Made by a program: the position numbers and the translations under genes. Shown piece by piece: positions 1 through 42,199 of a DNA stretch of 43,782 nucleotides. Numbering within the stretch: position 1 is the first letter of the stretch; each line of letters opens with the position of its first letter. This DNA comes from Clostridia bacterium (GTDB lineage Bacteria > Bacillota > Clostridia > Oscillospirales > SIG627): contig JAFYTG010000196.1 in assembly GCA_017558945.1 (NCBI GenBank), positions 1 to 43,782 on the forward strand. Direction: 5' to 3'. The notes below the pieces were generated by a model. The model saw only the letters and a program-made list of their open reading frames with translations. It had not been told where the DNA came from and did not search any database.

Positions 1-53
1 GCGTCAGGTTGTGGCCCTGAAGGCCGTGGGTTCGAATCCCATCACTCACCCCA
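1..53 (+). tRNA. 3' part of tRNA-His (anticodon GTG), truncated by the window edge, CCA encoded
   Basis: Anticodon stem tcagg(4-8)/cctga(16-20). Loop ttGTGgc (9-15). T-arm gtggg-ttcgaat-cccat (26-42). Acceptor 3' strand cactcac (43-49). Discriminator C50 is the His-typical C73. CCA at 51-53. The 3' end closely resembles known bacterial tRNA-His. Confidence 0.8.
28..53. repeat. attL core (gggttcgaatcccatcactcacccca), part of the intact tRNA-His
   Basis: Identical 26-mer recurs at 35048-35073. Flanking bases differ on both sides. Confidence 0.9.
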
Positions 54-1816: not shown

Positions 1817-1845
1817 ATTATACACTATTTAGTGTCTTTTGTCAA
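1817..1845 (-). promoter_or_regulatory. Consensus promoter TTGACA-17-TATAAT (minus strand) driving the 39-aa peptide
   Basis: Reverse complement of 1840-1845 is TTGACA and of 1817-1822 is TATAAT. Spacer is 17 nt. Confidence 0.7.
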
Positions 1846-1892: not shown

Positions 1893-1921
1893 TTGACATT
1901 TAATAATTTACAATGTATAAT
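1893..1921 (+). promoter_or_regulatory. Consensus promoter TTGACA-17-TATAAT (plus strand) driving the XRE gene
   Basis: -35 at 1893-1898 and -10 at 1916-1921. It diverges from the minus-strand promoter about 50 bp away. Confidence 0.7.
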
Positions 1922-2229: not shown

Positions 2230-5200
2230 CTATTGCCTTGTTGGAAAATTGTATTCTCTTTTAGGCAGATTAAATTTTCTCTCGGGGAGATTGTATTTCG
2301 GCTGTGTGCCGCTCTCCGAGGCTTTGCCGTCATTGAAGGCTTGAGCGATTCCCGAGGCATAATCGCCGTAGGGATTATTTTTCACCGAGCTTGAGCCCGT
2401 GACTATCTGCCACAGAGCTGCCTTCTGCTGAACCGTTAGTGATATTTCGTTATCCCCTCCCGGCAAGGCAAAGCCGTAGCTCGTCGGAAACAGACCGTCA
2501 ATTGCTTTCTGGTATTCGGCGGCGGAATAGCTGCCGTTACCGTTCGTATCGTACTCGCTCATATTAAGCTTGAGAGCGGTAAACGCCTTCAAGGGAACGT
2601 CATTATCGTAGCAGAGGTCAAGCCTCTTGCTTTGAGCGTCCTCAGTGACAAGAGCCTTGAGAGCCTCAAGAGTCGTTTCCTCGGGATAGCCTGCCTGAGC
2701 TACCGCATCCCACTTCTGAGCCTGCGACACACTTGTTTTATTGCCGAGAGGCTCAAGGGCCTTCAAACTCAAGGCAAGGTGTACTGCAACCCCCTCCGAA
2801 AGTCCCGTGTCTATAAGCTTATCGTAAGACTCGGAATCATCGCCGATGTATTCCTCGAAGAGCAACACTCGATCGTGTGAGTCAAGAGTGCCATCGAGTA
2901 TGAGCTTCGCCTTATTATGCATTTTATCCGCATTTTTGATATCAAGAATAACGTTGATGGCAGACGGGGAGCTTATACGGTCAAGCGTTGCACGCTCGCT
3001 CTCGGTATTGCTCGCCAGCATATTATAATAAAGTGAAAGCTTTGCCTCATCAGAAACGTTGGAATTACGCAATGCACTTCGTTTATCCTTAGTTTTTTCT
3101 GTCGTTCGTATGGTGTTTATAAGCTCAAGAGCTTCCCTCTCACCTGCGCCGACTGCCTTCATCTCTTCATAAGCACGAGTCTGATCTGAGGTGTAGCTCT
3201 TAAAGCCTCCCTCTACCCAATCCTGAGCCGTAGGAAGAGAGCTTTTGCCGAATATAAGCGCTTTAGCGGCGTTGCCGACACTCTTTGCACCCTCATCTGA
3301 ATAATAAGGATATTGAAGCTTTTCATCTCCTTTGCTGTCGGTTTTATAGCTTCCCCCTTTAGCAAGAGCAATTCCGCCCTTGACTGTTTTTGATATTTGT
3401 CCGCCACCCGTCGGTAAAAACAAGTAAGTTGCAGGATTTTCAAGCTCCTTGGCAATGGACTTGAGACCTCCGTTGCCTATTCTGCTCAGGTCCTGAGGAA
3501 GCCCGTCTATCAGCTCCGACACACTTCCGTACGGCAACGCAGATTCCAACGGGAACCTGCCTCCTCCGAAATATCCGCCGACAAAGGGAAGCTCCTCGAC
3601 GATATTGTCCACGAGATTGCTGACGGTATTTTCATCCCCATCACGTATATCACGTATTGTATCCGCCGCCATTCCGATCGGGTCAAATGCCGCATCGTTT
3701 CCCGTAAGCTCCTTGAACACAAGGTTAAACAAGGCGGCACCGATAAACATTTTAACGTATCCGAATATCAGTCTTCCTATACCCTCGTTTTTTAAGTCTC
3801 GGGGCATATCCTTGAACATATACCCATATTGGTTATTGACCTCAAGCTGAAACGCCGTAAATATCCTTGAAATAAAGTTTTTCGCCTCAAACGCAGTCGG
3901 CATTTCTCCTCGGCTGCGGCTTGCCATAACGCTTGAGCAGAATACGTCGGCGTTGTATATAGCCTGTGCCTCCGACATTCCCTCCTTAATATTGTCGTAA
4001 TACTTACCTCGCCATATCACCTCTGACGATAGCGAATCTATCATTTCCATAGGTATCGAAACACTATCGGACACCTTATCCCATCCGCTTTTATAAAGCT
4101 TTTCGACCTTTTCAAGCCTATTGGTCAAAAATGCAGACTTTTCAGTTAAGCCATCATTTTTAAAGGTGGTCGATATAAAATCGCCGAATGCCTTCAAGGA
4201 GCTTCCGAGCGACACCTCTCCCCAGGACTGCGTAACGGATATGAAATTGGTTAACGCAGAGCGTATATTTCCGCCTATCATATTTCCGCTTACTCGGCTC
4301 GACACGTTATCCATAACAGAATAAAATTTTCTGTTTAAAGCCGTTTCCGTGCTTCTGTCAGAGGTGGATTTTTTCCCTGCAAGCGTATTGGTCTGCTTGC
4401 GAAAATCAATAACAAAGTTATTGAGCGGATTACTCTTGGTCTCCAAAACCTTATCTATCAGAGCCTGAGTCGTTTCCTCGTCGTGCCCCTCGGCTATTAT
4501 TTTGTCAATCTCCTCCTGAGCTCCCTTATCGCTATGCTCATACCTTATACGGTTTTCAAAGGCACGTCGTTTTTGAATATCCTCGATATGATATATCCAA
4601 TCAAGTGCGCCTTGAACGTAGGAATCAAGTCCTTTTGTAAAGCTGTAATCGGTTATATCCGATTTTCTCTCTTTATTGAAGGGTTGATAGCTACGCTCGG
4701 GATTAAAGGTCTCGGTAAGGCCTGCTATATCCGTCGGGATCTCATTACTTTTGATTTTCCAGTTGAAGAGTCTTGCAAACCAACCTTGCTTTTCATCGGT
4801 AAAATGAGGAAAATATCCCTCACGATACGGAATTTCCTTCATACCCTGCTCTCGCAAGGTTTCGTTCAATCTGGCAAAGAGACCGTCATACGTTTCTCTT
4901 GCCATTTTTATTGCACGTTCAACCTTTTTGGTGTCTATTTCGTTCTTATGCTCGTCATAGAACCTGCTCACGTCGTCTTCGGTAAGAGTGGTGTCGGGGT
5001 TATGGCGAAGCTCTCCGAGCATTTGAATATATGCATCCTCCGCCCTGGTTATCTTCATATCCGCATAAGGAGACTTAATACTGTTAGCCTCACGTATAAG
5101 CTGCGCCTCGTGAACGTTATATTTTCCCTGAAGCTCGTCCCATATCGCATCAGCCCTCTCAATATCGTGAGTTCCGTCAGCCTTCCGTATTATATCCCGA

Positions 5201-8200
5201 AGATTACGCCTCAAGGTATTCGTGGAATAGTGAAGCCCCAATTTTTTATCTCTCCAGGTGGAAGAGTCGCCGATGAGCTGCTGCATAAGAAGATCATACT
5301 CCTCACGCTTGCTCATCCGCTGTTCCCTTTGCTTGAACTCGGGAGTACCCATTTTGTCAATACGAGCTTGCACGTCCTCAATGCGCTTATCCAATATGGC
5401 AAGCGAATCATCTCTCAGACGTTCAAGCCTTGCTATGCGGGCTTTTAATTGTGTAGCAGTCTTTGACGTATCATTTCGCTTCTGCGATAATAAAAACTGC
5501 AAACCCGCTATTTCATCATCAAACGAGACCTTTGTATCGTGACGTGATATTCCAAGCTCCTCCAGCTCCTTTTCCAAGCTCTCAAGCTTTTGAAGATTTG
5601 CCCCCTTTACCGTAGCTTGACCTTCTGCGATACTGTCAGCTCGGGCGTCGGGATACATTTCCTCTGCGGTTTTCAGTACGATGGGTTCAACGTCGTCAGC
5701 CGTATCCGCCTCTCCGTTACCCTTATAGTAAAGGTCAACGAGCGGTGTGCTGTATGCACCTATATCGGACTGTTCAACGTTTTTGGGAGAAAGTGAATAT
5801 TTTCCATTGACATTTCCGTCAGGAGATGTTATCATATTTTCAGACATAGAGTTGATGTATGGATCCACCGTAGCATTATTGCTACGACCCATAGAAAAAC
5901 TGATTTTTTCAGTTCTAGACTCTGTGTCTTTTGTTTTTAGCAATTCAAATGCTTTCCCTTCAGGTGATAATACTCGTAGCGAGTGAACTCTACCTTTACC
6001 AAACATTACAGATACAACAATATTTCCCTTTTCGCCATTAAGAATTGCAGGTGCTGCAAATGTTATTGATACCGTTCCTTGTCCTTTGTGATTTTTATGA
6101 CCGGAAATTATTTTTCCTTTTTTTATTACATAAGGCGAAGCAATAGCCGCTGCACGTTCCGGATCTGTTTTTGCATAATTTTCAATTGATGAGATTGCAT
6201 CTTCGTCAAAAAGGATGCTACCCAAGCCTTGTACATCAATCTTGTTTCCGAAAGATTTTTTTAACGTATCTTCAAGAACTTTATAATACGGTCTTTTATC
6301 CTGCTTGCTATAAGTCACGTCTACGACCGGTTGCATTGAATTAACTTCGTCAAGGTGTGCAATTAATTGTTCTTTTAACGTACTGAAATTGTCAGGATCC
6401 CAGTTTATATCTAAGTCACGAACGTCTTTTTGAGTGAGACTATATCTAACCTCCCCCGAATTATTCTTAAGCTTAGAGTTCAAAGCTCTCTCGAGTCTAT
6501 GCTGAGCTGTTAAAAGCTTGCGAGCCTCGGGGGTATTTGCTTTTATAAGAGAAATTACGTGCTTTATTTCGTTCAAAATACGCTGTGCGAGGTTGGGATG
6601 CTTTGCGGCAAGGCTATTGACAAAGCCCTCATCGGAAAAGAGGTATTCTCCGACAAGCTCGGCAGTAAGCTCCTCATTGATATCGGCATTTTTTACGGTT
6701 CTGTACATTCGGGCTACAGCCTTGTGCTTGTCTTCGTAAACACCGATCTGATTTGCGTAACCGATAACAGCCCTTTGTAAGCTGTCGTAATACTTGGAAC
6801 CCTCAAGCACGTGGGTTATTTCATGACCGATAACCGACTGCCACGCCTTGCGGGACTCGGCATTGATGAGCACCGTTTTGCCCGTATACACACCGTTAAC
6901 GAAGCGGTTGCCGACAGAAAAGCCCGATTCCTTGAGCCTTTCATTGTTGACGAACTCAAATTCAACACCCGTTCTTGAGTAAAGCTTTGCGGCAAGGTCT
7001 ACAAGCCGATGAGACGCCTCGGTGTCATTGAGCACACCGCTTGCAATCGCCCTCTCAACGATATATCGCTCCTTACCCTCATATTTTGTCGGGTCATCGG
7101 TGAACGCTCTGTTGGAAGCCGTCTTTTCCCGATATTCCTCTGTGACGTATTCCTCGGCCGTCACAAACGGAAGCGGGTCATTCTGAACAGTGTATGGAAG
7201 CTGTGAAGCTTCGTCCTTTGTGTCCGATGTATCGGGGTTGACAGAACTGTCAGGGTGTGGTATACTAATATTAGTAGCATTGCTGTCAAGAGACGTTTCG
7301 GACGTAAGTTGCGGGGAAGAGTATTCTTCTATGTTCAACAATTGACCTTTGCTACCTTTTTTTATGTACGAGCTTGTTATCCAGATTATCTTGTTGGTGC
7401 TATCCGGAACACATTCAGAAACATATATTGTGTTGTTGCCAACCTTTTTTTCTATGCGAATTTGAGGAGCATAACTCCCATCGCTGTTTTGAAATCTGGT
7501 GGATAAAGATACATTTCCATTTTTATCAAGTACAAACTCACCTGAATCGGCATTTTGTATTGCCCACGGTATTAAAAACTGTGAAGCTTCATCGAACATT
7601 GATTTGTCGGCTTTGCCATTCTCGCCATGACGAATATACGTGTGTGATGCACCTGTACCATCTATCCAGATTTGATAGCCCTCCGAAGAAAATCGCGGGT
7701 TGATGGTTTTCATTAAGCTGTTAACTATTTCTGTATGATTTTTAGAAGCTTCACCTATTTTGTGCTTTCTTTTAGATATAAGTGATTTGTCAAGCATTGA
7801 ATTTACACTATTGATAAAGTTTTTGAATCTTAATCCATTTTCATAATTATCCTTTGATAATTTTACAGTAATAATGCTTCGACCATCTTTTGACATTGTT
7901 TCGACCGTCTCATTTACCGAGGCGGTATTATTGTCATCAAGCTCAACCGACGTTGATTTCAAGGCACCGTTTTCATAGTCCTCAAGGTACAGCTCCGCCA
8001 TACTTTTACCGGACGCTTTCGCACGTGCTTCAAGCTCGTCAAAATATTTATTTTTGCCCGTCCATTCGCTCTGTGCTTTGTTAAAATCAGAGGCGATTTG
8101 AGGAGCGGAAAATACGCTGGACATAGCAGCACCCGAGAGTGCACCTGCAATTCCGTCTATTCCAAGCTCAAGAGCCTTATCCTTTACCGCATTTACCCAA

Positions 8201-9900
8201 GCCTGCGATTCGGTCATGCCTTGAGCCTTATAATTCTTTATTGAGCTTTGCCACTGACTCTTATCACCCGAAACAAGAATATCGGCAAAGGTATTAATAA
8301 GATTGGTGCCGGGCTCTTCCAAGCCCTCGGTAAGTGCGTTTTTGGCAATATAACGGATTCCGCTCTTACTCCAGCTTCCGCCAAATAGAGCATCGAGGCC
8401 TATCTTCTCCATTATTAATTCAGCGGCGGCAGCCACTATACCGAGAGAAAGCGCCTGAGCGTTATTGAGTCCTCTGTCTCGGGCTTCGATAACGGTATCG
8501 CCTGCCACGCTTGTGCTCATAATGGCGAGTGAAGCGGCAGGGTTGCCCAAGGATGCCATAAGAGTAGTTCCGTAGCTTCCGAGACCCATTGCGATGTTAT
8601 AAAGCAGCTTACCTGTATCGTTCATATTCTCAGAAACGGCTTGTGTGGTTGCAGCCGATTCAAAGTTAAGACGGTTGTAGTCTGCATCCTGATTGATTTC
8701 GCCGTTTTTTATAAGGTCTATCACCTGTGTAGGAAACGTTGTTATTTTATTGGGGGCATTAAGAATGCTGATGATTGAGCTGCCGACGGGATGTGCTTTT
8801 GCAAACTCACGCGCTTCCTTTTCAATTTCATCTCTGCGTCTGCGGTACAAGGTGGACTCGCCCGTTTGTGCGATAGCTTTTTCAAGAAATTCTATATACT
8901 CATAAGCTTTTTCGGGACCTTCTGTTGCATATATATAGTTAAAGGTCTTTACTTCATCCTCGGTCATTTCCTCAAAGTGAAAGTTGTTGAATTTACGGTA
9001 TCTGTTATCCTCAAAATTAATGGCCTTGGCATCAGCATTACCGTTTATGTAATCATACAGAATATCGTCGAAGGCATCACCGTCTGAATAGTATTCCGTA
9101 TACTCGCGTCTGCTTACGGGATTATACTTTTTGATTCCGAAGATAGGCGTATCCTGACGGGTAGTTTTATACTCACTTTTTTCTTCAAAATCATCATTGT
9201 TTTTCAGATTGTCATAAGCAAAATATTTACTCCAGGTCCTTTCTTCTTCAAGAAGGGCTTTTTCTTTTTTCAGTGCTTCCAGCTCGGATTGTGCGGATGA
9301 ATTAACTGTGTCGTAGCCTTCGTCTCCTTGGGTATAATATGCTTTTTTTGCGTCGTCCGCACGGTTTGCTTCGATAGATGAAATACGTGAAGTTATTTTT
9401 TTGATATCTTTTTCAACATCCTGCTCGTTCCTTACAGTACTTCTCCACTTTGTGTATTCGGACTCATAGGAGTTAGCACCATCAAAAACGGCATTGTCTG
9501 ACACCTTGGAAAGCTTGTCAAGACCTTGTGCTTCAGCTTTTTTACCGGTAGTTTTCATAAAATCAGCTACTTTTTTCGGTGTATTATAAAGAGCACCTAC
9601 CGTATCGGCAACGCCTTTTCTTTCGGTTTCTGCCCATTTTGAAAACTCGGGAGAATAATAAGGATTTGTTTTCGAGGGCGCAAGACGCTCGTCAATTTGC
9701 TTTGCGCGAGTATCAACGGAAGAAGCTTTGAGCATGGCTTGAGGGTCAAAGCCTTTTACTTCTTTGGGTCTTGCATCAATCGGGGTATATGCTCTAAGGC
9801 GGTCAAGAGCACCTACCACAGTTTTTTTATCTGTGGCAGGTGCAGTATTTGTATTAACGTCAACGGGAGTGTATGATTTTAATTTCTCGAGTGCTGTCAT
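2230..9900 (-). CDS. Giant 2556-aa polyvalent-type protein, probably virion-associated, with a zincin metallopeptidase module and PBECR-like nuclease-fold modules
   Basis: RBS aggagg. HEITH zincin motif at codons 6811-6825. A GASHTYIRHGENG...IWITSSY module near 7250-7880 resembles phage Barnase-EndoU-ColicinE5/D-RelE (PBECR) domains. Gly/Ala-rich hydrophobic segments and long coiled coils are present. An EF-hand-like loop DTNGNGSYSAAE lies near the C-terminus. Confidence 0.6.
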   Translation of the reverse strand: MTALEKLKSYTPVDVNTNTAPATDKKTVVGALDRLRAYTPIDARPKEVKGFDPQAMLKASSVDTRAKQIDERLAPSKTNPYYSPEFSKWAETERKGVADTVGALYNTPKKVADFMKTTGKKAEAQGLDKLSKVSDNAVFDGANSYESEYTKWRSTVRNEQDVEKDIKKITSRISSIEANRADDAKKAYYTQGDEGYDTVNSSAQSELEALKKEKALLEEERTWSKYFAYDNLKNNDDFEEKSEYKTTRQDTPIFGIKKYNPVSRREYTEYYSDGDAFDDILYDYINGNADAKAINFEDNRYRKFNNFHFEEMTEDEVKTFNYIYATEGPEKAYEYIEFLEKAIAQTGESTLYRRRRDEIEKEAREFAKAHPVGSSIISILNAPNKITTFPTQVIDLIKNGEINQDADYNRLNFESAATTQAVSENMNDTGKLLYNIAMGLGSYGTTLMASLGNPAASLAIMSTSVAGDTVIEARDRGLNNAQALSLGIVAAAAELIMEKIGLDALFGGSWSKSGIRYIAKNALTEGLEEPGTNLINTFADILVSGDKSQWQSSIKNYKAQGMTESQAWVNAVKDKALELGIDGIAGALSGAAMSSVFSAPQIASDFNKAQSEWTGKNKYFDELEARAKASGKSMAELYLEDYENGALKSTSVELDDNNTASVNETVETMSKDGRSIITVKLSKDNYENGLRFKNFINSVNSMLDKSLISKRKHKIGEASKNHTEIVNSLMKTINPRFSSEGYQIWIDGTGASHTYIRHGENGKADKSMFDEASQFLIPWAIQNADSGEFVLDKNGNVSLSTRFQNSDGSYAPQIRIEKKVGNNTIYVSECVPDSTNKIIWITSSYIKKGSKGQLLNIEEYSSPQLTSETSLDSNATNISIPHPDSSVNPDTSDTKDEASQLPYTVQNDPLPFVTAEEYVTEEYREKTASNRAFTDDPTKYEGKERYIVERAIASGVLNDTEASHRLVDLAAKLYSRTGVEFEFVNNERLKESGFSVGNRFVNGVYTGKTVLINAESRKAWQSVIGHEITHVLEGSKYYDSLQRAVIGYANQIGVYEDKHKAVARMYRTVKNADINEELTAELVGEYLFSDEGFVNSLAAKHPNLAQRILNEIKHVISLIKANTPEARKLLTAQHRLERALNSKLKNNSGEVRYSLTQKDVRDLDINWDPDNFSTLKEQLIAHLDEVNSMQPVVDVTYSKQDKRPYYKVLEDTLKKSFGNKIDVQGLGSILFDEDAISSIENYAKTDPERAAAIASPYVIKKGKIISGHKNHKGQGTVSITFAAPAILNGEKGNIVVSVMFGKGRVHSLRVLSPEGKAFELLKTKDTESRTEKISFSMGRSNNATVDPYINSMSENMITSPDGNVNGKYSLSPKNVEQSDIGAYSTPLVDLYYKGNGEADTADDVEPIVLKTAEEMYPDARADSIAEGQATVKGANLQKLESLEKELEELGISRHDTKVSFDDEIAGLQFLLSQKRNDTSKTATQLKARIARLERLRDDSLAILDKRIEDVQARIDKMGTPEFKQREQRMSKREEYDLLMQQLIGDSSTWRDKKLGLHYSTNTLRRNLRDIIRKADGTHDIERADAIWDELQGKYNVHEAQLIREANSIKSPYADMKITRAEDAYIQMLGELRHNPDTTLTEDDVSRFYDEHKNEIDTKKVERAIKMARETYDGLFARLNETLREQGMKEIPYREGYFPHFTDEKQGWFARLFNWKIKSNEIPTDIAGLTETFNPERSYQPFNKERKSDITDYSFTKGLDSYVQGALDWIYHIEDIQKRRAFENRIRYEHSDKGAQEEIDKIIAEGHDEETTQALIDKVLETKSNPLNNFVIDFRKQTNTLAGKKSTSDRSTETALNRKFYSVMDNVSSRVSGNMIGGNIRSALTNFISVTQSWGEVSLGSSLKAFGDFISTTFKNDGLTEKSAFLTNRLEKVEKLYKSGWDKVSDSVSIPMEMIDSLSSEVIWRGKYYDNIKEGMSEAQAIYNADVFCSSVMASRSRGEMPTAFEAKNFISRIFTAFQLEVNNQYGYMFKDMPRDLKNEGIGRLIFGYVKMFIGAALFNLVFKELTGNDAAFDPIGMAADTIRDIRDGDENTVSNLVDNIVEELPFVGGYFGGGRFPLESALPYGSVSELIDGLPQDLSRIGNGGLKSIAKELENPATYLFLPTGGGQISKTVKGGIALAKGGSYKTDSKGDEKLQYPYYSDEGAKSVGNAAKALIFGKSSLPTAQDWVEGGFKSYTSDQTRAYEEMKAVGAGEREALELINTIRTTEKTKDKRSALRNSNVSDEAKLSLYYNMLASNTESERATLDRISSPSAINVILDIKNADKMHNKAKLILDGTLDSHDRVLLFEEYIGDDSESYDKLIDTGLSEGVAVHLALSLKALEPLGNKTSVSQAQKWDAVAQAGYPEETTLEALKALVTEDAQSKRLDLCYDNDVPLKAFTALKLNMSEYDTNGNGSYSAAEYQKAIDGLFPTSYGFALPGGDNEISLTVQQKAALWQIVTGSSSVKNNPYGDYASGIAQAFNDGKASESGTQPKYNLPERKFNLPKREYNFPTRQ

Positions 9901-9910: not shown

Positions 9911-11290
9911 TTAGGATATTCCTACTGCTTTCATTATATAATCGAGCTCATTCTGACTGATACGTCCATCACCAACGGCTTCTATGAGATTTTTACGCTG
10001 GACAGAGTTTAATCCTTGCACATTGCCATTTTCATTTCGAATGTGACTAAGATAAGTCCTTGCAGTGGGACTCAATTCCGATTCATCGGTGATTTCTTTT
10101 TCAAATCCGTATGACATAAGCGATTCCTCTGTCAATCCGTAATCGGTGATTAAACGATTCCAATTTTCCGCACTGATTACACTGTCTTCGTCAGCAAAAC
10201 CATTATCAATAATTGACTGTCGCCAGCCTTCAGGTGTATCGGGATATTTTTTTCCTGAGGCGTTGTATACGTAGTCTATATATGCATCGCTCCAGCCGTT
10301 ATTTTTCAGAACAGTACGAATATTATCGTCGATATATCCTGCCTCAAGGGCGTTACGTGCATCGGTGAGACTCATTGTTGAGGTAACGGACGAAGCCGAC
10401 TTCTGTTGAGCCTTGACAGAATCTACCACGGCTTGAGCATCCGCCGTGTTTATTCCCGCACTAAGAAGCACGTCGGAGGAGGGCATTATACCGTTCTGGA
10501 GCAAGGTCATTGCCCAGCTGCGAGCATTTGTCCTCTCGTTATTCTCCTGCTCACGTGCTATTGCATCATTCTCCCTCTCTATAACGCTTTTATTATAGTC
10601 AAGGGTATCGTTACGGTTAATAAGCGACTGAAGGACACCTGCATAGCTGTCCGTCCCTCTCTGTGCCAGCTCAAGTGCGGCGTTCGCCGTTTCCACGTCT
10701 CCCGTAAGCTTGGTATCGGTTATAGCCTTATCAAGCTCGGCTTGAGTCCTGATTCTCTCCTGCTCGCCCTGACGGAGTGCCTCGCCGTAGCTTGTATCCA
10801 GCCCGAGAAGAGAGCTTTCAGACATTCCTCCCGTGATTCCCTGAGAAGCGAGCTGCTGATTTACGTTCTTTTTAGCCTTCATCTTATCAAGATAAAGCTG
10901 TCGGAAAAGGTTAGCGTAGCTTTGGTCGGTCGAGGCCTTCTGTGCATTCAGGTCGTTCACCGCCTTATTCACCGCCGCATCGTTGGCTTTTTTTGCGTTG
11001 TTGTAAGCGGCGGTATATCCGCTCGACGTTAAATTCTTATACTCCTTAATGAGAGAATCGGTATCATTGGGATTAGAGTCCGCTTTCCTTGTGCCATCGT
11101 AATTATAAGCTTGTGTATACGTCATATTAGAACCGGCAAGCGTGGGCTCAACTCCTTTGTATAAATGATCGATTTTTGCAGCTCTTTCTCCCGTGTATTT
11201 CGCTCTTTGTTCGGCAGATAAGTTAGTATCGGCAAGCAACGCACTATAATCCTTGTCGGGATCATATCCAAGTTTAATATTATATGCCAT
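9911..11290 (-). CDS. 459-aa hypothetical protein, coiled-coil rich, possible virion or ejection protein
   Basis: Strong RBS aaggag. Tightly packed between the endolysin and the giant gene. No motif recognised. Confidence 0.5.
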   Translation of the reverse strand: MAYNIKLGYDPDKDYSALLADTNLSAEQRAKYTGERAAKIDHLYKGVEPTLAGSNMTYTQAYNYDGTRKADSNPNDTDSLIKEYKNLTSSGYTAAYNNAKKANDAAVNKAVNDLNAQKASTDQSYANLFRQLYLDKMKAKKNVNQQLASQGITGGMSESSLLGLDTSYGEALRQGEQERIRTQAELDKAITDTKLTGDVETANAALELAQRGTDSYAGVLQSLINRNDTLDYNKSVIERENDAIAREQENNERTNARSWAMTLLQNGIMPSSDVLLSAGINTADAQAVVDSVKAQQKSASSVTSTMSLTDARNALEAGYIDDNIRTVLKNNGWSDAYIDYVYNASGKKYPDTPEGWRQSIIDNGFADEDSVISAENWNRLITDYGLTEESLMSYGFEKEITDESELSPTARTYLSHIRNENGNVQGLNSVQRKNLIEAVGDGRISQNELDYIMKAVGIS

Positions 11291-12318: not shown

Positions 12319-12600
12319 TTAAAGTCCTAATTCAGATAAAAGATAACCCACAACTGCGGCGATGATGAGAGTTATAATCTGTTCCCACCGCTTAGCAGGA
12401 ATGTTTTTTATATTTTTTACATCAGTTTTTATCTCTTTTACATCGGCTTCTACTGTTTTTTCTCTTTCGTCAAGGCGAGCAACAGTATTCACTATCTTGT
12501 CGAGGTCGTTTTGTCGTTTTTCAACGTCATCAAGTCTGTGTGAGTTTGACTTTGAGCGTTCTTCCACTTCTGTCAATCTCTTTTCGTGTGCCAAGTCCAT
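12319..12600 (-). CDS. xhlA: XhlA-family lysis accessory protein
   Basis: N-terminal coiled coil plus a C-terminal TM segment (WEQIITLIIAAVVGYLLS). Occupies the PBSX-like xhlA-holin-amidase position. Confidence 0.65.
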   Translation of the reverse strand: MDLAHEKRLTEVEERSKSNSHRLDDVEKRQNDLDKIVNTVARLDEREKTVEADVKEIKTDVKNIKNIPAKRWEQIITLIIAAVVGYLLSELGL

Positions 12601-13037
12601 TATGTCACCGCCTTCCATCCGCTTGGATACTCAATCGGAGACCATATGTTGTTATCACACGTTGATTCATACTTCTGTCCGTTGAATGATACAGCATCAC
12701 CCGTCATATACGCATCGGAGCTTCCAAGAGGCTGCACCCATTCGGGAACACCCTCTTCGGTAATACCAATAGCCTTATACAAGCTCGGCGCAGTATCGGG
12801 AGTCCATTCCTCGCTTGAGGTGTGATCCTGCAATACCACATAAAGCTGTGTATCTCCTACGGCATTCTCACCAAAGCCAAATACCTCTTTCACCTTGTAA
12901 TTTCTGCCTATCTCCCACTTCGGAAACACGCTCGGTACTTCGAGAATACTCTCACTCTGCGTATCCACATCAAGTGTTGCAAGGAACATCTGCAAAGCCT
13001 TGCGCAATTCAAGTGCAATCTGCTTCTTATTCATCAT
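12600..13037 (-). CDS. Tail-associated protein with a C-terminal carbohydrate-binding (CBM5/12-like) motif
   Basis: YMTGDAVSFNGQKYESTCDNNIWSPIEYPSGWKAV resembles the chitin/carbohydrate-binding aromatic pattern. The start MMNKK has SD gggggtgg. Confidence 0.45.
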   Translation of the reverse strand: MMNKKQIALELRKALQMFLATLDVDTQSESILEVPSVFPKWEIGRNYKVKEVFGFGENAVGDTQLYVVLQDHTSSEEWTPDTAPSLYKAIGITEEGVPEWVQPLGSSDAYMTGDAVSFNGQKYESTCDNNIWSPIEYPSGWKAVT

Positions 13038-13395
13038 CTGCCACCCCCAAAAGCACATCAAGTATCTCATCCGTTGTTGGCTCGGGGATAGGCTCGGGAG
13101 CAGGCTCGGGAACAACACCCTCGGTCATACTCGTTACTACCGTTACGGTATACGGAATATGTTCAATGATTGGCTCTTCGTCCTCTGTTTCCTCATCAAC
13201 TTCTATCGGGTAATGCTTGACCTCTTTGTAGCGGGTCTCCTCTGCTACCTTGATGTTGACGAAGGGGAAGGTGCTGGGGATGACCATATCATCGGGTATC
13301 TGTGCGTATCCTTCGGGAATTTCGCTGATGTCGGATGTTTGATTAAAGTGAGCTCCGTTTGGGAGTGCTTTAATTTCAATTATTCTCATTTTCAT
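13027..13395 (-). CDS. 122-aa hypothetical tail-module protein (acidic, Pro/Glu-rich C-terminus)
   Basis: ORF translationally coupled to the fiber gene. The start may be 13389. Confidence 0.5.
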   Translation of the reverse strand: MKMRIIEIKALPNGAHFNQTSDISEIPEGYAQIPDDMVIPSTFPFVNIKVAEETRYKEVKHYPIEVDEETEDEEPIIEHIPYTVTVVTSMTEGVVPEPAPEPIPEPTTDEILDVLLGVADDE

Positions 13396-14936
13396 TCCCC
13401 CTTGCCTATTGCAATATAGTAATATGTTTTTAACTGCATAGAATAATCAATATTGTCCCCTAAATTTGCGCTGAATGTATTCGCAAATTCCAAATCGCTT
13501 GCCCGTTTTTTTGAAATGATATCGTTAGCAAAATTCCAATAGGTTCCTTTTTCGCTAAGATGTCTGAAGAAAATCGCAAACGAAGCAAAATCGTTATCCT
13601 CTGTTTCGGGGCAGATTAAGAATACGATATCAGGAGAAAAGCCCAACGCAAATTGTACGATTCCCTCAATCCCGCCTGCACCCTCATAAGTTCCCGTAGC
13701 TATCCTGCAACTGCCAAGCCAATTTGCTATCGTGTTTTTTTCCTCATCCGTTAAGGTGTACTTGTTCGCAGTAAGACCTACCTTTACAGCGTAGTCAAGA
13801 ATCGAAGGTGTGATTGGCATATATGCGGAACGTTTGTCATTGTCAACGTCAATATGACTTTCTTTTGCACCATGTATTGCAAGGCGATCAACACCATCAA
13901 TCCCCTTGTAATACAAGCCGTATGTCGCGGATGAAAGTCGGACTATACCTGCCTTGCCCGTTCCCTTATTCTTGTCATATATTTCGGCATAATCGGTGTT
14001 TTTGACATAGTTTGACGGGTCAAAGTCCGCTATTTCAACCGCTCTATCGCGGGCTTTTTTCGATTCTTCGGCGGCTTTCTCGGCGTCTTGCTGGGCTTTC
14101 TCGGCAGCTTGCTTGGAACTGAGTGCGCTTGAAGCACTATTGGATGCCGCTTGTTTTTCATCCTCTGCAAGCGACGCCGCATTACTTGCATCCAGCGCTG
14201 AAGCTGAAGCCTTCTTCGCATAATCTTCCGCATCATTTTTGGCAGCCACTGCATCTTCTTTCGATTGTTTTGCTTCTTCGGCAGAATTAGACGCATCAGC
14301 AACCTTTTCTATAAGGTCACTCTTAAGTTCCGAGGAAAGATGAGCGTTCGTAATAGATTCATCCTTGACCTCAGCTTTGACAGAATTATTTCCAAGGTTA
14401 GAAAACTTGACGGTATTGCCTTCGACAAAATCCGTAAAGCTTATAAGAGCTGTCAAGGGGATTTCCTGCTTCGTTCCATCAACAAGCTCGAGAATAAGTT
14501 TTTCGTTTTGAGAATCATACTCAAAATTTACAGCGATTTTTTCCAGCCCGGTATCTAAGGTTATTACCTCACCATTTTCTCGCTCAAACGAAAAAACACC
14601 GGTTTTCTCGTCGAATGTAACATTCTTGATGTGAGACTCACTTACCTCGTTGGGTGTATAAAAACTCTCAATATGATTTTTGAGTTTTTCCGTTGCCGTA
14701 AATACACTCAACTTATTATTTTCCCCGAATAAGTCGGTCATTCCAATTGAGGATGCCCCCAAATCAGATACAAGCTTATCAATAAGAGCGTTAAATTGAG
14801 TCCTAACGTAGTCTTTTATCAGGCGGTCAAAGACAGCCTTATTTTGTGCCGCACTGCCAGTAAGCTTATCCCCAACCGATTGAACGCCGTGTGTTTTAAT
14901 ATCCTCGTCTTTAATTTTAAAGCTTTCAATTGACAT
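13392..14936 (-). CDS. Tail fiber / receptor-binding protein
   Basis: Central Ala/Ser/Glu/Lys-rich coiled coil (ADASNSAEEAKQSKEDAVAAKNDAEDYAKKASASALDASNAA...) is typical of phage fibers. Position fits the tail module. Confidence 0.6.
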   Translation of the reverse strand: MSIESFKIKDEDIKTHGVQSVGDKLTGSAAQNKAVFDRLIKDYVRTQFNALIDKLVSDLGASSIGMTDLFGENNKLSVFTATEKLKNHIESFYTPNEVSESHIKNVTFDEKTGVFSFERENGEVITLDTGLEKIAVNFEYDSQNEKLILELVDGTKQEIPLTALISFTDFVEGNTVKFSNLGNNSVKAEVKDESITNAHLSSELKSDLIEKVADASNSAEEAKQSKEDAVAAKNDAEDYAKKASASALDASNAASLAEDEKQAASNSASSALSSKQAAEKAQQDAEKAAEESKKARDRAVEIADFDPSNYVKNTDYAEIYDKNKGTGKAGIVRLSSATYGLYYKGIDGVDRLAIHGAKESHIDVDNDKRSAYMPITPSILDYAVKVGLTANKYTLTDEEKNTIANWLGSCRIATGTYEGAGGIEGIVQFALGFSPDIVFLICPETEDNDFASFAIFFRHLSEKGTYWNFANDIISKKRASDLEFANTFSANLGDNIDYSMQLKTYYYIAIGKGE

Positions 14937-14950: not shown

Positions 14951-16810
14951 TCATTTCTTTGCAAAATTGCCCGTTACAAAATGCTTGACGATACCGTAAA
15001 CTCCGAAGCCCTCGTTTGCGGTATCGTTGACTATAACGAACTGAAGACGTTTATAATTTTTCACCTTGCGATTGAGAGGTATTTCGCTCGGTGCATCGTT
15101 TGAATTAAAGGTGAATCGGGCAAAATCAATATCCTCCCAGTTAAAGATATCCATCGTTCCCGATGCCGCCTCCCATTCAACCGCATCCTTGTCGGTTCTG
15201 AGATATATCGTTGCCGACGAGCGCGTGTACGGCTTAATTGTTACGGCGTTTCCTTTTTTGAGAAGCGTTTTAAGAATCATAGGGTCGCCGTCATCGTCTG
15301 CCTTTGTGCTCCACACAGCTCTGATGGGATCTCCTCCGTCGTTGAACTTCGTAAGCCCGTCGATATCGGTATTGAGCTTACATATTCTGCCGTCTTTTGT
15401 GCCGAAATAGAGATATTCCTTTCCGTTTTCAACGAGCTTCATCACCACTCTCGCGGGGATGTTATCCCAATAGAAGCACTCATATAAAAAAGAGGTATCG
15501 GCACGTGAGGGATAGCTCCTTTGCTGTTTGCCGTCAAGGCCGTAAACACGACCGTCGACAAAAACCATATACGCACCGTCAAAGCTGATGCTCACAGCGT
15601 CTGACAGGTTCTCCTTTATGAGCTTAGGGTCAATCCTTGCACTGCGGTTCTGTACTATCCTTTCGCTCGTCAGGCTGTTTGTAGTGAGGGCATATATTCC
15701 CGAGCCTGTTATAAAAAGCTGTTCATCGTCGATATTACCGAAGCCAAAGCGGCTGACGGCACCCGCACCCGATAAGCAAGGCTTTGTACTCCACACCGCA
15801 CTGCCGTCCTCGGACAAGCCCGAGCTTCGTATGAATACGGTTGAGTCCTGACCGTTATCCTCTTTAATTATCGCAAGGTATTCACCTATACGGCGATATC
15901 CGACTATTGACGTTTGCGCCGTTCCTATCACCTGATAATCCGTATCAGACCAATAGGTACCGTCGTTAAAGGCGCACGTAAAGTCATAATTAGGATAATC
16001 GGGATTACCCGAGGCTATAATTCTGTCGGATGCCCCTCCCACGCCCCACACGGTAGCCACACGGCATTTGTTGATTCTGTCGGAATAGCCTTCAAGCTTT
16101 TTGGAAAACGTTATAAAAACGTTGTCCTCAGCACCCACAAGAGGAGCTGAAGGAGCCTCGGCGAACGTTACGGTTCCTTTTGAATAATCTACCGTGCAGT
16201 CGGTCACATCTTTGCCGTTAACACGAACTGAAATTTCTATTTCGATATCCTCGTACGGCAGCTTATACGTCTTTGCTTTACCGTCAGCCAGATATCCTAT
16301 TCGTTGCTTAGAGGAAAGGTAGTTGATTCCTTCATACGCCACGCCTCCTCCATCGGAGGGAGAGGCGGAAATCACCGTAAGCGGTATATATGCAATATCC
16401 TCGGCAGCAACGGCGCTTTCGCCGTCATACCTGAACAGCTTCTCACCCGTAAATATCCACAAATAGCCGCCCATATATACGGCGCTTGAACGCTCATCGG
16501 GAAGATCATAGCGAAGCTCGTCAATATAGCCGCTCTCATCCCACTCAAAAAGCATATTACATCGGTGACATATAAGGTGCTTTTTACCCTTAAATTCGAC
16601 CGAATACAGACCGTTGATTCTTTCATCACTGTTACCGTTGAGTATCACCCTCCAGCCGGGACGCTTTTCGGGCATACCGCCCATATCCGCAATTATGTTA
16701 GGTGCCCATGGAGAGCGTGAATCATCAACAAGTGACGGATCCGTCGAGAAATCCACTCCCTTGAATCTTGAATAGTTTTTTGTTCTTATGCTAACCGAAC
16801 GCCTTGCCAT
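14951..16810 (-). CDS. 619-aa tail structural protein (possible nozzle/tubular-type)
   Basis: Size and position between the head-completion and fiber genes. Beta-rich sequence. No explicit motif recognised. Confidence 0.45.
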   Translation of the reverse strand: MARRSVSIRTKNYSRFKGVDFSTDPSLVDDSRSPWAPNIIADMGGMPEKRPGWRVILNGNSDERINGLYSVEFKGKKHLICHRCNMLFEWDESGYIDELRYDLPDERSSAVYMGGYLWIFTGEKLFRYDGESAVAAEDIAYIPLTVISASPSDGGGVAYEGINYLSSKQRIGYLADGKAKTYKLPYEDIEIEISVRVNGKDVTDCTVDYSKGTVTFAEAPSAPLVGAEDNVFITFSKKLEGYSDRINKCRVATVWGVGGASDRIIASGNPDYPNYDFTCAFNDGTYWSDTDYQVIGTAQTSIVGYRRIGEYLAIIKEDNGQDSTVFIRSSGLSEDGSAVWSTKPCLSGAGAVSRFGFGNIDDEQLFITGSGIYALTTNSLTSERIVQNRSARIDPKLIKENLSDAVSISFDGAYMVFVDGRVYGLDGKQQRSYPSRADTSFLYECFYWDNIPARVVMKLVENGKEYLYFGTKDGRICKLNTDIDGLTKFNDGGDPIRAVWSTKADDDGDPMILKTLLKKGNAVTIKPYTRSSATIYLRTDKDAVEWEAASGTMDIFNWEDIDFARFTFNSNDAPSEIPLNRKVKNYKRLQFVIVNDTANEGFGVYGIVKHFVTGNFAKK

Positions 16811-16812: not shown

Positions 16813-17382
16813 TTAACCTCCGTAAAAGCGCTGTGCTATGTACCCCTTACCGCCGGATGATGGGAGAGATACGTCGAGAGCCGCACGCATATTAATATAC
16901 ATCGACCAAAAAGCCGAGTAATCAACCACAAGATCGGGCATAAGGTGTTGAGCCGCAACGTAGAACGGGAGGCAATTCGCAGCGTCCTCTGATACTTCAA
17001 ATTCGTATGAATCATCGGTTGATGAGGTAATAGTCTGCGGACAGGCAAAATATTCAAGAATTATCTCGCCCGTTTCCTCCATCGGAACGGCTAAACGCCC
17101 CGCTATAATCGGATATCCCGAACGAAGCTTGCCGTTTTTCCAGACTCTGAAGATTTTAACAAAGTCTTTGGGGAGCTCATAATTCGTATAGCCTCCCTCT
17201 CCTCCTGTAAGATTTATCTTATAGGAACGAATTATTTTTTTGTAATTTGCCATATCCTTCTGTGCCGTATCGAAGAAATCTGCCATTTTATTATTTATAT
17301 CCCTATCGTCAGTGACCGCACCGCCTGACGAGTATTCGTCGAGAAGCATAAGGACACGACGCTTGCCGTCACCCAAAGTCAT
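16813..17382 (-). CDS. 189-aa head-tail connector/adaptor candidate
   Basis: Position only. Strong RBS ggagg. Confidence 0.4.
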   Translation of the reverse strand: MTLGDGKRRVLMLLDEYSSGGAVTDDRDINNKMADFFDTAQKDMANYKKIIRSYKINLTGGEGGYTNYELPKDFVKIFRVWKNGKLRSGYPIIAGRLAVPMEETGEIILEYFACPQTITSSTDDSYEFEVSEDAANCLPFYVAAQHLMPDLVVDYSAFWSMYINMRAALDVSLPSSGGKGYIAQRFYGG

Positions 17383-33998: not shown

Positions 33999-34994
33999 AT
34001 GACACGACGTTCTGACGGTCTCTGGCAGGAGGCTATCACAATCAACGGAAAAAGAAAATACTTCTACGGCAAAACCAAGGCAGAGGTTCTCAAGAAGCTT
34101 AGAGACTACCAGGGTGAGACGGAACAGGGCAGACTGTTCCGAGAGGTTGCTGAGGAATGGTGGGAGGAGCATTCGCAAAAGGTCGTCCCCTCTACGATGA
34201 GCGGATATAACGCGCGCTTTCTGTGTGCGGTTGAATATTTTGACGACAAGAGGATCAAGGACATAACACCGCAGGACGTTACAAAGCTTCTCAAGTCCTT
34301 GCAGGACAAGAAATACTCGCAAAAGGTTATCTCCACACAGCTTAACGTTATAAATATGATTATCAACGTAGCAATAATCAACGGAGATATAACCTACAAT
34401 CCCTGCTCAGCCGTTCAGATTCCGAAGGGACTCCCAAAGAAGAAGCGCGAGCTCCCTACGGATAAAGAATTTGAAATCGTTGAAAACAGCGATTGGCTGT
34501 TTCCGTTCTTTCTCCTTTATACCGGGTGCAGACGCGGTGAGGCTCTCGCCGTTACGTACGAGGATATAGATTGGGAGAAAAAAGTTATTCACATCAATAA
34601 AGCCGTTGGCTTTAAAGGAAATATACCATACATCAAATCAACTAAAACCGAAGCAGGTCACAGAGACGTCGTTCTCCTCGACAAGCTCGCCGCAAGGCTC
34701 GATAGGTCTAAAACAGGACTTATCTTTCCGAACAACAAAGGCGAGCTCTGGCACGATTCCATGGTTCAGAGAAAATGGAAGCAGTGGCAGAGGAGATACA
34801 ACACCTCCGTTACCGCGCATCAGCTAAGACACGGTTACGCTACAATTCTTTTTGAGGCGGGGCTTGAGCCAAAGGATGCACAGTATCTTTTGGGGCACAG
34901 TACAATATCAATGACGCAGGATATTTACACTCATATCAGACAAGCGAGACAGCAAGAATATGCTGTAAAATTGAATGATTTTTTGAACAAATAA
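33999..34994 (+). CDS. int: Tyrosine-type site-specific integrase
   Basis: TGCRRGEALA (catalytic Arg), HQLRHGYAT, LLGHSTISMTQDIYTH (HxxR, H, Y). Adjacent to attR. Confidence 0.9.
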   Translation: MTRRSDGLWQEAITINGKRKYFYGKTKAEVLKKLRDYQGETEQGRLFREVAEEWWEEHSQKVVPSTMSGYNARFLCAVEYFDDKRIKDITPQDVTKLLKSLQDKKYSQKVISTQLNVINMIINVAIINGDITYNPCSAVQIPKGLPKKKRELPTDKEFEIVENSDWLFPFFLLYTGCRRGEALAVTYEDIDWEKKVIHINKAVGFKGNIPYIKSTKTEAGHRDVVLLDKLAARLDRSKTGLIFPNNKGELWHDSMVQRKWKQWQRRYNTSVTAHQLRHGYATILFEAGLEPKDAQYLLGHSTISMTQDIYTHIRQARQQEYAVKLNDFLNK

Positions 34995-35047: not shown

Positions 35048-35073
35048 GGGTTCGAATCCCATCACTCACCCCA
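35048..35073. repeat. attR core (displaced tRNA-His 3' fragment)
   Basis: Exact copy of 28-53. The upstream sequence is not tRNA-like. Confidence 0.9.
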
Positions 35074-39099: not shown

Positions 39100-40569
39100 A
39101 TGAAATCAAAAATAATTATAAATAAAAATTTTACGGTAGGCAAAATAGACGACCGACTGTACGGCTCATTCGTTGAGCATATAGGGCGTGTTGTGTATAA
39201 CGGAATATACGACCCCGAGCACGAAACGGCTGACGATATGGGCTTCAGACAAGATGTGCTTGAAGCGGTCAAGGAGCTTGACGTCCCCATAGTGAGATAT
39301 CCCGGAGGCAATTATCTTTCCGCATATAATTGGGAGGACGGAATCGGAGATAAAGCCCAAAGGCCAACCAAGCTCGATCTTGCATGGAGAAGCATTGAAA
39401 CGAACGAGGTTGGCATAGACGAGTTTCAGGAATGGGCAAAAAGAGCGGGCACGTCGGTTATGATGGCTGTAAATATGGGTACAAGAGGAGCGGATGAAGC
39501 ACGCGAATGCGTTGAATACTGCAACTCGGATACTCCGACCTATTGGGCTGACAAGCGTCGTAAAAACGGATTTGAAAAGCCCTTCGGAATAAAGACATGG
39601 TGTCTCGGAAACGAAATGGGCGGTCTTGGACAAATATGCAGAAAAACTCCCGACGAATACGGACGCCTTGCCGTAGACTGCGCCAAGGTGATGAAGCTTG
39701 TCGACCCGTCCATAGAGCTGATCCTTTGCGGAAGCTCACACCGTGGAATGCCGCGGTTCGGAGAATGGGAGCTCACCGTATTGAATTATGCGTACGAGCT
39801 TGTTGACTATCTCTCGATTCATCAATATTACGGATCGGATGACAATATCGCAGACTTTTTCGCAAAGCCTTGCGATATGGACGATTATATCAAATCCGTT
39901 TTAGCTATGTGTGATTCAATTAAGGCGTATAAAAAATCGGGCAAAAGAATAATGCTGTCCTTTGACGAATGGAATATATTCGGAAAGGGTCTCGTTGCCG
40001 AGCCCAAAGCGGTAGAAAAGGCACCTCACCTTTTTGAATGTGAATATACCTTTGCAGATGCGCTCGTGATAGGTATGATGATGATGACGCTGCAAAATAA
40101 CTGCGACAGAGTAAAAATCGCATGTCTTGCACAGCTTGTGAACGCTATTGCGCCAATAATGACGGAGAACGGTGGAGGGCTTTGGCGACAGACCATATTC
40201 TATCCGTTCAAGCTTATGTCTAAAAACGGCAGAGGAGAAGCCATGAAAACGGCAATATACTGCGATACGTATTCCACCTCGAAGCACTCTGACATTCCGT
40301 ATCTTGCCTCCTCTGTAATTCATAACGAGGAAAAGCGTGAAATTGTAATATTCGCCGTCAATCGTTCACTCGACGAGGATATGGAGCTCGATGCAACAAT
40401 TGAGGATTTCGGAGAATACCGACTCGTTGAGCATATACGCATCTATTCGGATGACCTAAACGCAACAAACTCTATAAACGACGAGAAAATTCATCCGGAA
40501 GCGGTTGATCCGAACAGAGCCACGGTTTTAAAAAAGCACTCCTGGAATATGCTCAGATACAAATATTGA
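39100..40569 (+). CDS. Alpha-L-arabinofuranosidase, GH51 family
   Basis: LYGSFVEHIGRVVYNGIY, RYPGGNYLSAYNWEDGIG, WCLGNEMGG motifs. 489 aa. Confidence 0.8.
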   Translation: MKSKIIINKNFTVGKIDDRLYGSFVEHIGRVVYNGIYDPEHETADDMGFRQDVLEAVKELDVPIVRYPGGNYLSAYNWEDGIGDKAQRPTKLDLAWRSIETNEVGIDEFQEWAKRAGTSVMMAVNMGTRGADEARECVEYCNSDTPTYWADKRRKNGFEKPFGIKTWCLGNEMGGLGQICRKTPDEYGRLAVDCAKVMKLVDPSIELILCGSSHRGMPRFGEWELTVLNYAYELVDYLSIHQYYGSDDNIADFFAKPCDMDDYIKSVLAMCDSIKAYKKSGKRIMLSFDEWNIFGKGLVAEPKAVEKAPHLFECEYTFADALVIGMMMMTLQNNCDRVKIACLAQLVNAIAPIMTENGGGLWRQTIFYPFKLMSKNGRGEAMKTAIYCDTYSTSKHSDIPYLASSVIHNEEKREIVIFAVNRSLDEDMELDATIEDFGEYRLVEHIRIYSDDLNATNSINDEKIHPEAVDPNRATVLKKHSWNMLRYKY

Positions 40570-42163: not shown

Positions 42164-42169
42164 AATTGC

Positions 42170-42198: not shown

Positions 42199-42199
42199 G

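Follow-up and report, generated by a model that had tools for sequence, protein, structure and literature searches.

We analysed a 43,782-nucleotide stretch of DNA from a Clostridia bacterium (contig JAFYTG010000196.1; hereafter the window) and the giant open reading frame (ORF) carried by the prophage within it. We propose, with a rough probability of 0.6, that the product of this ORF is a mosaic polyvalent cargo protein, injected together with the DNA by a temperate short-tailed phage of the SU10/P22 type that is integrated at a tRNA-like att site in a gut Clostridia bacterium. As the last cistron of its late operon, the ORF lies beside a conserved partner gene; the ends of its product are position-fixed, the middle is exchangeable, and the predicted catalytic residues are intact. 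Three unrelated effector-type modules, which we describe as PBECR3-like, zincin and LPD3-like, occur in this one polypeptide with disordered linkers between them, and the sequence supports regarding the giant protein as a divergent member of the phage polyvalent proteins.

The initial annotation, made from the DNA letters alone, had described a single unbroken ORF, and we found 2,556 codons without interruption. The product is identical to a database entry from a metagenome-assembled genome, 'hypothetical protein IKV53_07205 [Clostridia bacterium]'. BLAST mapping divided it into an N-block (residues ~100-615), a variable region (620-900), the zincin (900-1160), the LPD3-like region (1167-1377), a C-block (1525-2330) and a terminal module (2356-2511). 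The features of the ORF, in order along the protein, are as follows.

2230..9900, reverse strand: giant ORF, predicted mosaic polyvalent protein, 2,556 aa (ORF listing and database match).
8056..9534, reverse strand: N-block, residues 123-615, with a match to phrog_22978, a phrog without assigned function.
8095..8613, reverse strand: Gly/Ala-rich hydrophobic helices in the N-block, residues ~430-602, modelled by AlphaFold2 at low confidence.
7354..7710, reverse strand: PBECR3-like ribonuclease (RNase) module, residues 731-849 (tile scan, alignment and AlphaFold2).
7123..7353, reverse strand: disordered Ser/Thr/Pro-rich linker, residues 850-926, with a conserved motif of the type SSPQ.T.E..FD.NAT.
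6466..7113, reverse strand: gluzincin-type metallopeptidase module, residues 930-1145, with H1026-E-I-T-H1030 and E1077.
5956..6405, reverse strand: LPD3-like alpha/beta module, residues 1166-1315 (tile scan, alignments and AlphaFold2).
5329..5703, reverse strand: charged region leading from the LPD3-like module to the C-block, residues 1400-1524.
2935..5328, reverse strand: C-block, residues 1525-2322, all-alpha, ~800 aa, with ~47 invariant positions.
2338..2847, reverse strand: C-terminal module, residues 2352-2521, with an EF-hand-like loop D2451-T-N-G-N-G-S-Y-S-A-A-E (nt 2515-2550).

A PBECR nuclease, a zincin and a second small beta-rich module had been proposed from the sequence, and each was found where it had been placed. 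The motifs quoted for them and for the C-terminus were all located as well: GASHTYIRHGENG at residue 750, IWITSSYIKKG at 839, HEITH at 1026, KKGKIISGHKNHKGQG at 1260, VHSLRVLSPEG at 1305 and DTNGNGSYS at 2451. Domains were searched with Pfam on the entire protein and then on 350-aa tiles. The whole-protein scan returned a weak M48 match and nothing else, and the tiles returned a match to PBECR3 (PF18812; E = 7.9e-4; 19.8 bits against a threshold of 30) that covers profile positions 13-110 of 115. This direct match is sub-threshold, but homologues that pass the threshold align with the same region: it aligns with the PBECR3 domains of P0008 (66 bits), P0126 (120 bits) and P0031 (34 bits), and residues 687-887 share 52-59% identity with parts of P0125, P0130 and P0134, all three of which match PBECR3 in their own right. 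One alignment (A5) was restricted to sequences shorter than 2,000 aa, since very long giants led to misplacement of the PBECR3 and LPD3 homologues.

Positions conserved in the PBECR3 alignment among homologues are H, RHG, E-x-VPD and I-T/V-S-A-Y, and local alignment finds H753, R757-H758-G759, E822-C-V-P-D and I-T842-S-S-Y retained in the query. AlphaFold2 modelled the domain with a per-residue confidence (pLDDT) above 90 as a His-bearing helix followed by five strands; H753 and H758 fall on the helix at 748-758, and T842-S-S on the last strand. The PBECR active site is described as a His on a helix together with a Ser or Thr on a late strand (Iyer et al., 2017; PMC5512222), and the residues predicted to be catalytic are kept in the query, in agreement with the nuclease assignment.

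In the zincin module, an alignment of 20 homologues shows no variation at H1026, E1027, H1030 or E1077. The secondary structure predicted by AlphaFold2 runs in the order helix, three strands, HExxH helix and a later helix with E1077, which fits the zincin core described by Iyer et al. (2017). The claim of a zincin stands for the HExxH motif and the downstream Glu, which are invariant, and falls short at the level of named families, since MPTase-PolyVal (PF18818), DUF6782, SprT and M48 all scored below threshold. Tile matches were weak (M48, 16 bits against a threshold of 20; M13, 13.5 bits), the orthologous region of P0123 scored 19.9 bits on DUF6782, and a profile search of the PDB with the zincin found no match.

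The second small beta-rich module is present and, judged by its aligned homologues, corresponds to a divergent LPD3. Its tile match to LPD3 (PF18798; residues ~1211-1298) has E = 0.037 and 14.6 bits against a threshold of 27. It aligns with the LPD3-bearing regions of P0013 (26.3 bits), P0006 and P0007, and residues 1173-1289 are 30% identical to a copy of LPD3 in P0121 whose score is 43 bits. The module is flanked by the motifs VRYSLT (residue 1153; nt ~6430-6444) and KYSLS (residue 1368; nt ~5785-5799). Across 194 giants, the pattern [RK]-Y-S-[LIVM]-[ST] with acidic residues recurs at module junctions, with 68 occurrences seen against 37 expected from shuffles; these motifs could be processing sites or recombination joints.

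Most of the remaining length belongs to three blocks, the N-block, the C-block and the C-terminal module, which together place ~1,800 residues in large families that are unnamed in Pfam, NCBIfam and PHROGs. The N-block lies near the N-terminus in every giant that carries it, and is detectable in 23 of the 74 giants that have a C-block. Gly/Ala-rich membrane-like segments had been noted in the protein and lie at residues 447-502 and 576-602 (Kyte-Doolittle means 1.1-1.55); these N-block helices are a candidate membrane-active segment, and a stronger hydrophobic stretch occurs at residues 2044-2062 (mean 1.89). Long coiled coils had also been claimed and were not borne out: a crude heptad-periodicity score flagged no more windows than in shuffled sequence. 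In the AlphaFold2 prediction, residues 121-235 form long helices.

The C-block and terminal module were modelled together by AlphaFold2 as nearly all alpha-helical (mean pLDDT 73; predicted template-modelling score 0.58). Compared by Foldseek with the predicted viral structures of BFVD, the C-block gave 58 significant matches (best E = 2e-32; template-modelling score 0.60), nearly all of them to the final fragments of giant proteins from uncultured phages, whose labels are PolyVal-ART, LPD, MuF_C, nuclease or methylase. When 1.84 billion cluster representatives (clusters at 50% identity) were searched exhaustively, the C-block family was found in 2,759 clusters at E <= 1e-3 and in 1,596 at E <= 1e-30; the proteins are of 1,900-3,600 aa, and the match nearly always falls within their C-terminal third. 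In species-representative genomes it was found at 177 loci, and the best 80 of these 177 are nearly all from uncultured gut Bacillota of humans, ruminants and rabbits.

The C-terminal module is always found at the extreme C-terminus. An EF-hand-like loop had been reported in it, and we recovered the canonical 12-residue pattern from D2451 to E2462, conserved in 14 of 23 aligned homologues. The Pfam EF-hand model gave no match in the giant's tiles even at E up to 5, so the EF-hand assignment holds at the motif level only.

A search with the full-length protein retrieved 391 relatives, mostly of 2,000-4,100 aa and on contigs of ~40 kb. Their recorded Pfam domains include ART-PolyVal, LPD23, LPD3, PBECR3, PBECR5, MuF_C, SprT-like and GNAT, which is the vocabulary of the polyvalent proteins of Iyer et al. 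(2017); with the three modules of the query, this set supports the class that had been proposed for the protein. The nearest relatives of the query's middle region are much shorter, stand-alone proteins (470-1,370 aa) encoded on long contigs, with up to 61-77% identity, indicating that cassettes are common to giants and small polyvalent proteins. When we tabulated modules by hidden Markov model (HMM) in 183 giants, N-block, C-block and terminal module were found in every combination. The positions of these modules are fixed: the median start of the N-block is residue 168, and the median distance from the end of the terminal module to the C-terminus is 8 residues. A tblastn search for cultured-phage relatives in GenBank phage records returned two uncultured faecal records and no others.

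The exchange of cassettes could be followed directly in a sibling phage. A partner protein 89% identical to that of the window (P0326) led to contig L086, in which the gene order is identical to the window's. Portal, capsid, adaptor, a 619-aa virion protein, holins, endolysin and other shared genes are 93-100% identical between the two. The tail fibre is 47% identical (L086 6288-7913 against window 13392-14936), and a small 122-aa ORF adjoining it is 66% identical. The two giant proteins compare as follows, in residues of the window's protein.

Residues 1-672, N-terminal region and N-block: 91% match.
Residues 673-873, exchangeable cassette containing PBECR3: no match.
Residues 874-1158, linker and zincin: 88% match.
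Residues 1159-2352, LPD3-like module, charged region and entire C-block: no match except a 39-aa junction island at 1364-1402.
Residues 2353-2556, C-terminal module: 86% match.

The two non-matching regions are occupied in the L086 giant by unrelated sequence, recorded as LPD38 and a faint MuF_C, and the replacement of the C-block region has no profile similarity to the C-block (hhalign probability 0.3%). We had considered the C-block as a fixed scaffold of the family and rejected this, because in L086 unrelated sequence stands in its place and because the modules occur in free combination. Both siblings keep the zincin but differ in the cassettes on either side of it, which fits a housekeeping processing role better than the role of a variable effector. 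Divergence between the siblings in the tail fibre, the giant's cassettes and the 122-aa ORF suggests host-linked diversifying selection. At the nucleotide level, window and L086 agree at 98% identity over a 53-nt island around TPLVDLYYKG.GEADTA, despite the unrelated flanking cassettes.

The giant gene is also accompanied by a conserved neighbour. Directly upstream of almost every giant gene is a same-strand ORF of 280-560 aa, and an HMM iterated from the window's 459-aa protein recovered a homologue at this position in 41 of 66 loci, indicating that partner and giant form a conserved two-gene module. The genes concerned in the window are the following.

9911..11290, reverse strand: partner gene, 459 aa, directly upstream of the giant (iterated HMM and synteny).
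14951-16810, reverse strand: 619-aa virion protein, presumed nozzle.
16813-17382, reverse strand: SU10-type adaptor, 189 aa.

The partner family has the consensus motif Q.A..GL...G.SESS.....N.YQNR and has no relative in the PDB, Pfam, NCBIfam or the annotated PHROGs; NCBIfam likewise offered no names for the partner and its neighbours. PDB sequence searches with the whole giant protein and the 619-aa protein, and with profiles of the zincin, the partner and the N-half, gave nothing significant. In 31 loci the gene immediately upstream of the partner-giant pair encodes a homologue of the 619-aa protein, and in 19 of these the adaptor precedes it, so that the usual order in relatives is adaptor, 619-aa protein, partner, giant. 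The clearest locus, L002, has this order followed by a fibre-like protein, holin and lysin. In phage T7 the order is gp11, gp12, gp13-16 and gp17, and the order of the relatives parallels it. The window, L066, L069 and L082 represent a variant in which the pair comes after the lysis genes.

The setting of these genes in the window agrees with a temperate short-tailed phage. The element is marked out by the following features.

28-53, forward strand: att repeat, an exact 26-bp direct repeat resembling a tRNA 3' end, with its twin copy at 35048-35073, adjoining the integrase.
33999-34994: tyrosine integrase.
2198-2227: hairpin with a perfect 13-bp stem, set between an A run and a T run, directly 3' of the giant ORF stop.

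The repeat reads GGGTTCGAATCCCATCACTCACCCCA and resembles the T-arm and acceptor 3' end of a tRNA; the two copies are probably attL and attR of a 35.0-kb prophage inserted in a tRNA gene. ARAGORN found no tRNA at the att site, where the complete tRNA is cut off by the start of the contig. The repeats delimit an element of 35,046 bp, of which the giant ORF makes up 21.9%, close to the 'about 22%' of the initial annotation. The prophage encodes the integrase, replication and regulation genes, small and large terminase, a P22/SU10-type portal, a probable capsid gene, the SU10-type adaptor, the 619-aa virion protein, a tail fibre, holins, an endolysin, the 459-aa protein and the giant ORF; host metabolic genes begin past ~35.7 kb. 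With this adaptor and portal and with no tape-measure, tube or sheath gene in the prophage, the call of a short-tailed phage is reasonable. The giant ORF had also been placed at the end of the late operon, in keeping with a ribosome-binding site upstream and a terminator downstream: the partner's stop codon is followed by GGAGG and, 10 nt on from that stop, by the ATG of the giant ORF. The hairpin at 2198-2227 stands between the giant ORF and a convergent helix-turn-helix (HTH) gene (1913-2173), and is likely a bidirectional intrinsic terminator that closes the operon.

The giant ORF is not the last gene in the prophage, ~2.2 kb separating it from the att repeat. Past the late operon, still inside the att-bounded element, the region 225-2173 holds two small XRE-type HTH genes and an HNH endonuclease (852-1382, phrog_374), with divergent, consensus-perfect sigma-70-like promoters at 1817-1845 (reverse strand) and 1893-1921 (forward strand). 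In the region 12600-13395 on the reverse strand, a 172-aa ORF carries two CBM_5/12 carbohydrate-binding repeats and shares ~90 nt with the end of the 122-aa ORF; the true start of the 172-aa ORF may lie further downstream, because L086 calls a 144-aa product. The host flank carries three tandem ORFs of ~490 aa (39100-43730, forward strand), the first with an alpha-L-arabinofuranosidase C-terminal domain and the second and third with no Pfam match. In L001, the contig of the homologue P0010, an RVT_1 reverse transcriptase gene (1268-2404) stands among tail and lysis genes and adjoins a DUF6273 protein; it may be part of a diversity-generating retroelement.

On the favoured explanation, the fixed end modules, possibly together with the partner, would direct the giant protein into the capsid or internal core, and at infection the protein would exit with the DNA through the portal-adaptor-nozzle channel. 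The hydrophobic helices of the N-block would engage the membrane, and the conserved zincin would cut the disordered linkers, thereby freeing the modules. The RNase and the other cassettes could then act on host RNA or on defence systems, with the choice of cassettes tracking the host, as the tail fibre does. A precedent is gp47 of the Stx2 phage phi24B (vB_EcoP_24B), of 2,811 aa with LPD5, LPD1, LPD38 and MuF-C domains; it is abundant in virions by proteomics, invisible in the cryo-electron microscopy map, and has been proposed to be a capsid-packaged ejection protein (bioRxiv 10.64898/2026.04.10.717836).

Several results weigh against this explanation. The support for packaging and injection is the precedent in phi24B and does not come from the window's protein itself; moreover, phi24B gp47 has no detectable homology to the C-block (profile probability 3%), nor has vb_24B_47 to the window's partner (probability 0.3%). 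None of the query's own Pfam matches (PBECR3, LPD3, M48) reaches its curated threshold, and Pfam scans found no peptidoglycan hydrolase domain in the giant protein. Foldseek found no significant PDB fold match for either AlphaFold2 model (none with E < 0.4; the best for the C-block was 0.43), and the 1,200-residue multi-domain N-half model, which makes a weak test, gave no zincin or BECR match in the PDB. Since the C-block, N-block and partner have no known function, most of the protein mass is unexplained. Finally, the window's own partner-giant pair follows the lysis genes and so lies outside the structural block.

The main rival is an ejectosome: the giant would be primarily a structural ejection protein, an analogue of T7 gp14-gp16 or of the P22 ejection proteins, that, with its partner, builds a channel prolonging the short tail across the Gram-positive envelope and carries the cassettes as secondary passengers. 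The synteny speaks for it, as in most relatives the pair comes directly after the adaptor and the 619-aa protein, much as gp13-16 follow gp11-gp12 in T7, and so do the conservation of the partner gene, the Gly/Ala-rich hydrophobic helices of the N-block and the proposal of phi24B gp47 as an ejection conduit; nor are other candidates for internal-core genes evident in the 35-kb prophage. Against this, the protein resembles no solved ejection protein in sequence or fold and has no cell-wall hydrolase domain, and just 23 of the 74 C-block giants have a detectable N-block. Near-identical phages differ in ~1,400 of the 2,556 residues, including the entire C-block, which is hard to reconcile with a tightly fitted conduit unless the end modules alone serve as one. 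We therefore consider this rival rather unlikely for the protein as a whole, while it may be partly true for the end modules.

The giant might instead never be injected and act in or from the producer cell, for example as a MuF-like inter-bacterial toxin released by lysis or as a late cytoplasmic factor. Its toxin-like modules (RNase and zincin), the position of the window's gene downstream of holin and endolysin, and the existence of small stand-alone proteins with the same cassettes would all suit such a role. No immunity gene is apparent downstream, however, the common synteny lies within the virion block, phi24B gp47, in part homologous to the sibling's giant, is physically in virions, and end modules that keep a fixed position are more usual in determinants of packaging or delivery, so that we regard action in the producer cell as improbable. 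Far less probable still are the readings of the giant as a tape-measure-like tail protein or as an N4/crAss-type virion RNA polymerase. The size of the protein, its Gly-rich hydrophobic helices and the place of its gene in the late operon suit these superficially, and the N4 virion RNA polymerase is itself a polyvalent protein with a zincin MPTase domain (Iyer et al., 2017; PMC5512222). We looked for the tape-measure or RNA-polymerase homology that would have contradicted the polyvalent assignment and found none: Pfam, PHROGs and NCBIfam gave no tape-measure, tube, sheath or RNA-polymerase match, the adaptor and portal are of podovirus type, and the C-block is all-alpha with no PDB match. At the sequence level, the idea that the C-block equals the C-terminal domain of the N4 enzyme was rejected, as hhalign gave a probability of 0.2% with the last 1,100 aa of that enzyme.

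Injected polyvalent cargo is thus the reading that we favour, and it bears on phages in which such giants occupy a fifth of the genome. We know of no giant polyvalent protein from a Gram-positive gut phage that has been studied experimentally. New here are the extent of the module families without a name, the conservation of the partner gene, the tail-channel synteny and the exchange of cassettes between siblings. A testable idea follows, in which the cassettes are injected, host-specific modules for counter-defence or takeover and the end modules are determinants of packaging and ejection; possible uses are host-range engineering of gut phages and the discovery of new anti-defence enzymes. 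More speculatively, and with doubt outweighing confidence, the giants may constitute a distinct and widespread delivery system of gut Bacillota podophages, in which phage-specific anchoring end modules and a dedicated partner load one polypeptide into the virion, cassettes of 200-1,200 aa are recombined at the junction motifs, and the zincin releases them once injected. If so, the giants would act as a programmable 'effector magazine' that sets host range, varies together with the tail fibre and includes an 800-aa all-alpha fold outside the PDB.

Among known systems, the T7 proteins gp14-gp15-gp16 resemble the giant in gene position, in that the giants of relatives follow the adaptor and a nozzle-like gene and stand ahead of fibre and holin genes, and in being large, largely helical and endowed with hydrophobic segments. 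They differ from it in that PDB searches showed no sequence or fold similarity, and in that the giant has no lytic transglycosylase, serves a monoderm host and is mostly exchangeable. Bacteriophage N4 virion RNA polymerase gp50, of 3,500 aa, is packaged in the capsid and ejected, and serves as the prototype of podovirus polyvalent proteins. The giant ORF product is without its RNA-polymerase module, and a zincin is common to both. MuF-fused effectors and the Dar/Ddr proteins of phage P1 are packaged in the head and bear variable C-terminal toxin or anti-restriction domains, and some giant homologues have a PBECR-type MuF_C; neither the query nor the scanned homologues contain a MuF (PF04233) or portal fusion.

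Closer in host are the prophages phi1 and phi4 of Clostridium clostridioforme LM41, which are podovirus-like, of ~41 kb, and carry at the 3' end an ORF of ~8 kb that makes up ~20% of the genome (PMC11318856, 2024). That ORF was noted, without domain dissection, for its limited similarity to an 'LPD3' protein from Podoviridae sp. (PMC11318856), a label also borne by the second-best BFVD match of the query's C-block. The host is likewise of the gut Clostridia class and the ORF is similar in size and position, a likeness to the window's ORF that is by description only. Both LM41 phages are released spontaneously. According to the initial annotation, a protein of this kind had not yet been dissected in any short-tailed, Clostridia-type prophage; this is correct, with the caveat that the LM41 ORFs had been remarked on in 2024, so that the phenomenon was already seen in such phages but not analysed.

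phi24B shows the same layout, with a giant polyvalent protein in a temperate podovirus and an ORF of ~420 aa directly before it, as in the window. In the phi24B GenBank record, gp47 is vb_24B_48 (2,807 aa), the last gene, opposite the integrase and right after a 421-aa ORF. By BLAST the large terminase is common to phi24B and the window's phage and nothing else is, the host of phi24B is Gram-negative, and its LPD content differs (LPD1, LPD5, LPD38 and MuF-C). The sibling giant of L086 nevertheless shares two modules with phi24B gp47 (E = 3e-10 and E = 2e-6).

A further likeness is to the phage polyvalent proteins of Iyer, Burroughs, Anand, de Souza and Aravind (J Bacteriol, 2017; PMC5512222), for which a rationale of packaging and processing was given. 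The query's modules are divergent from theirs, lying below Pfam thresholds and with a zincin that matches no named model, and its conserved partner gene and position-fixed end modules were not met in the sections of PMC5512222 that we compared. In both, several unrelated effector-type domains are joined in one giant polypeptide encoded among virion genes, relatives are rearranged as mosaics, and the vocabulary is shared, with PBECR3, LPD3 and a zincin in the query and ART-PolyVal, LPD23, PBECR5 and MuF_C in its homologues.

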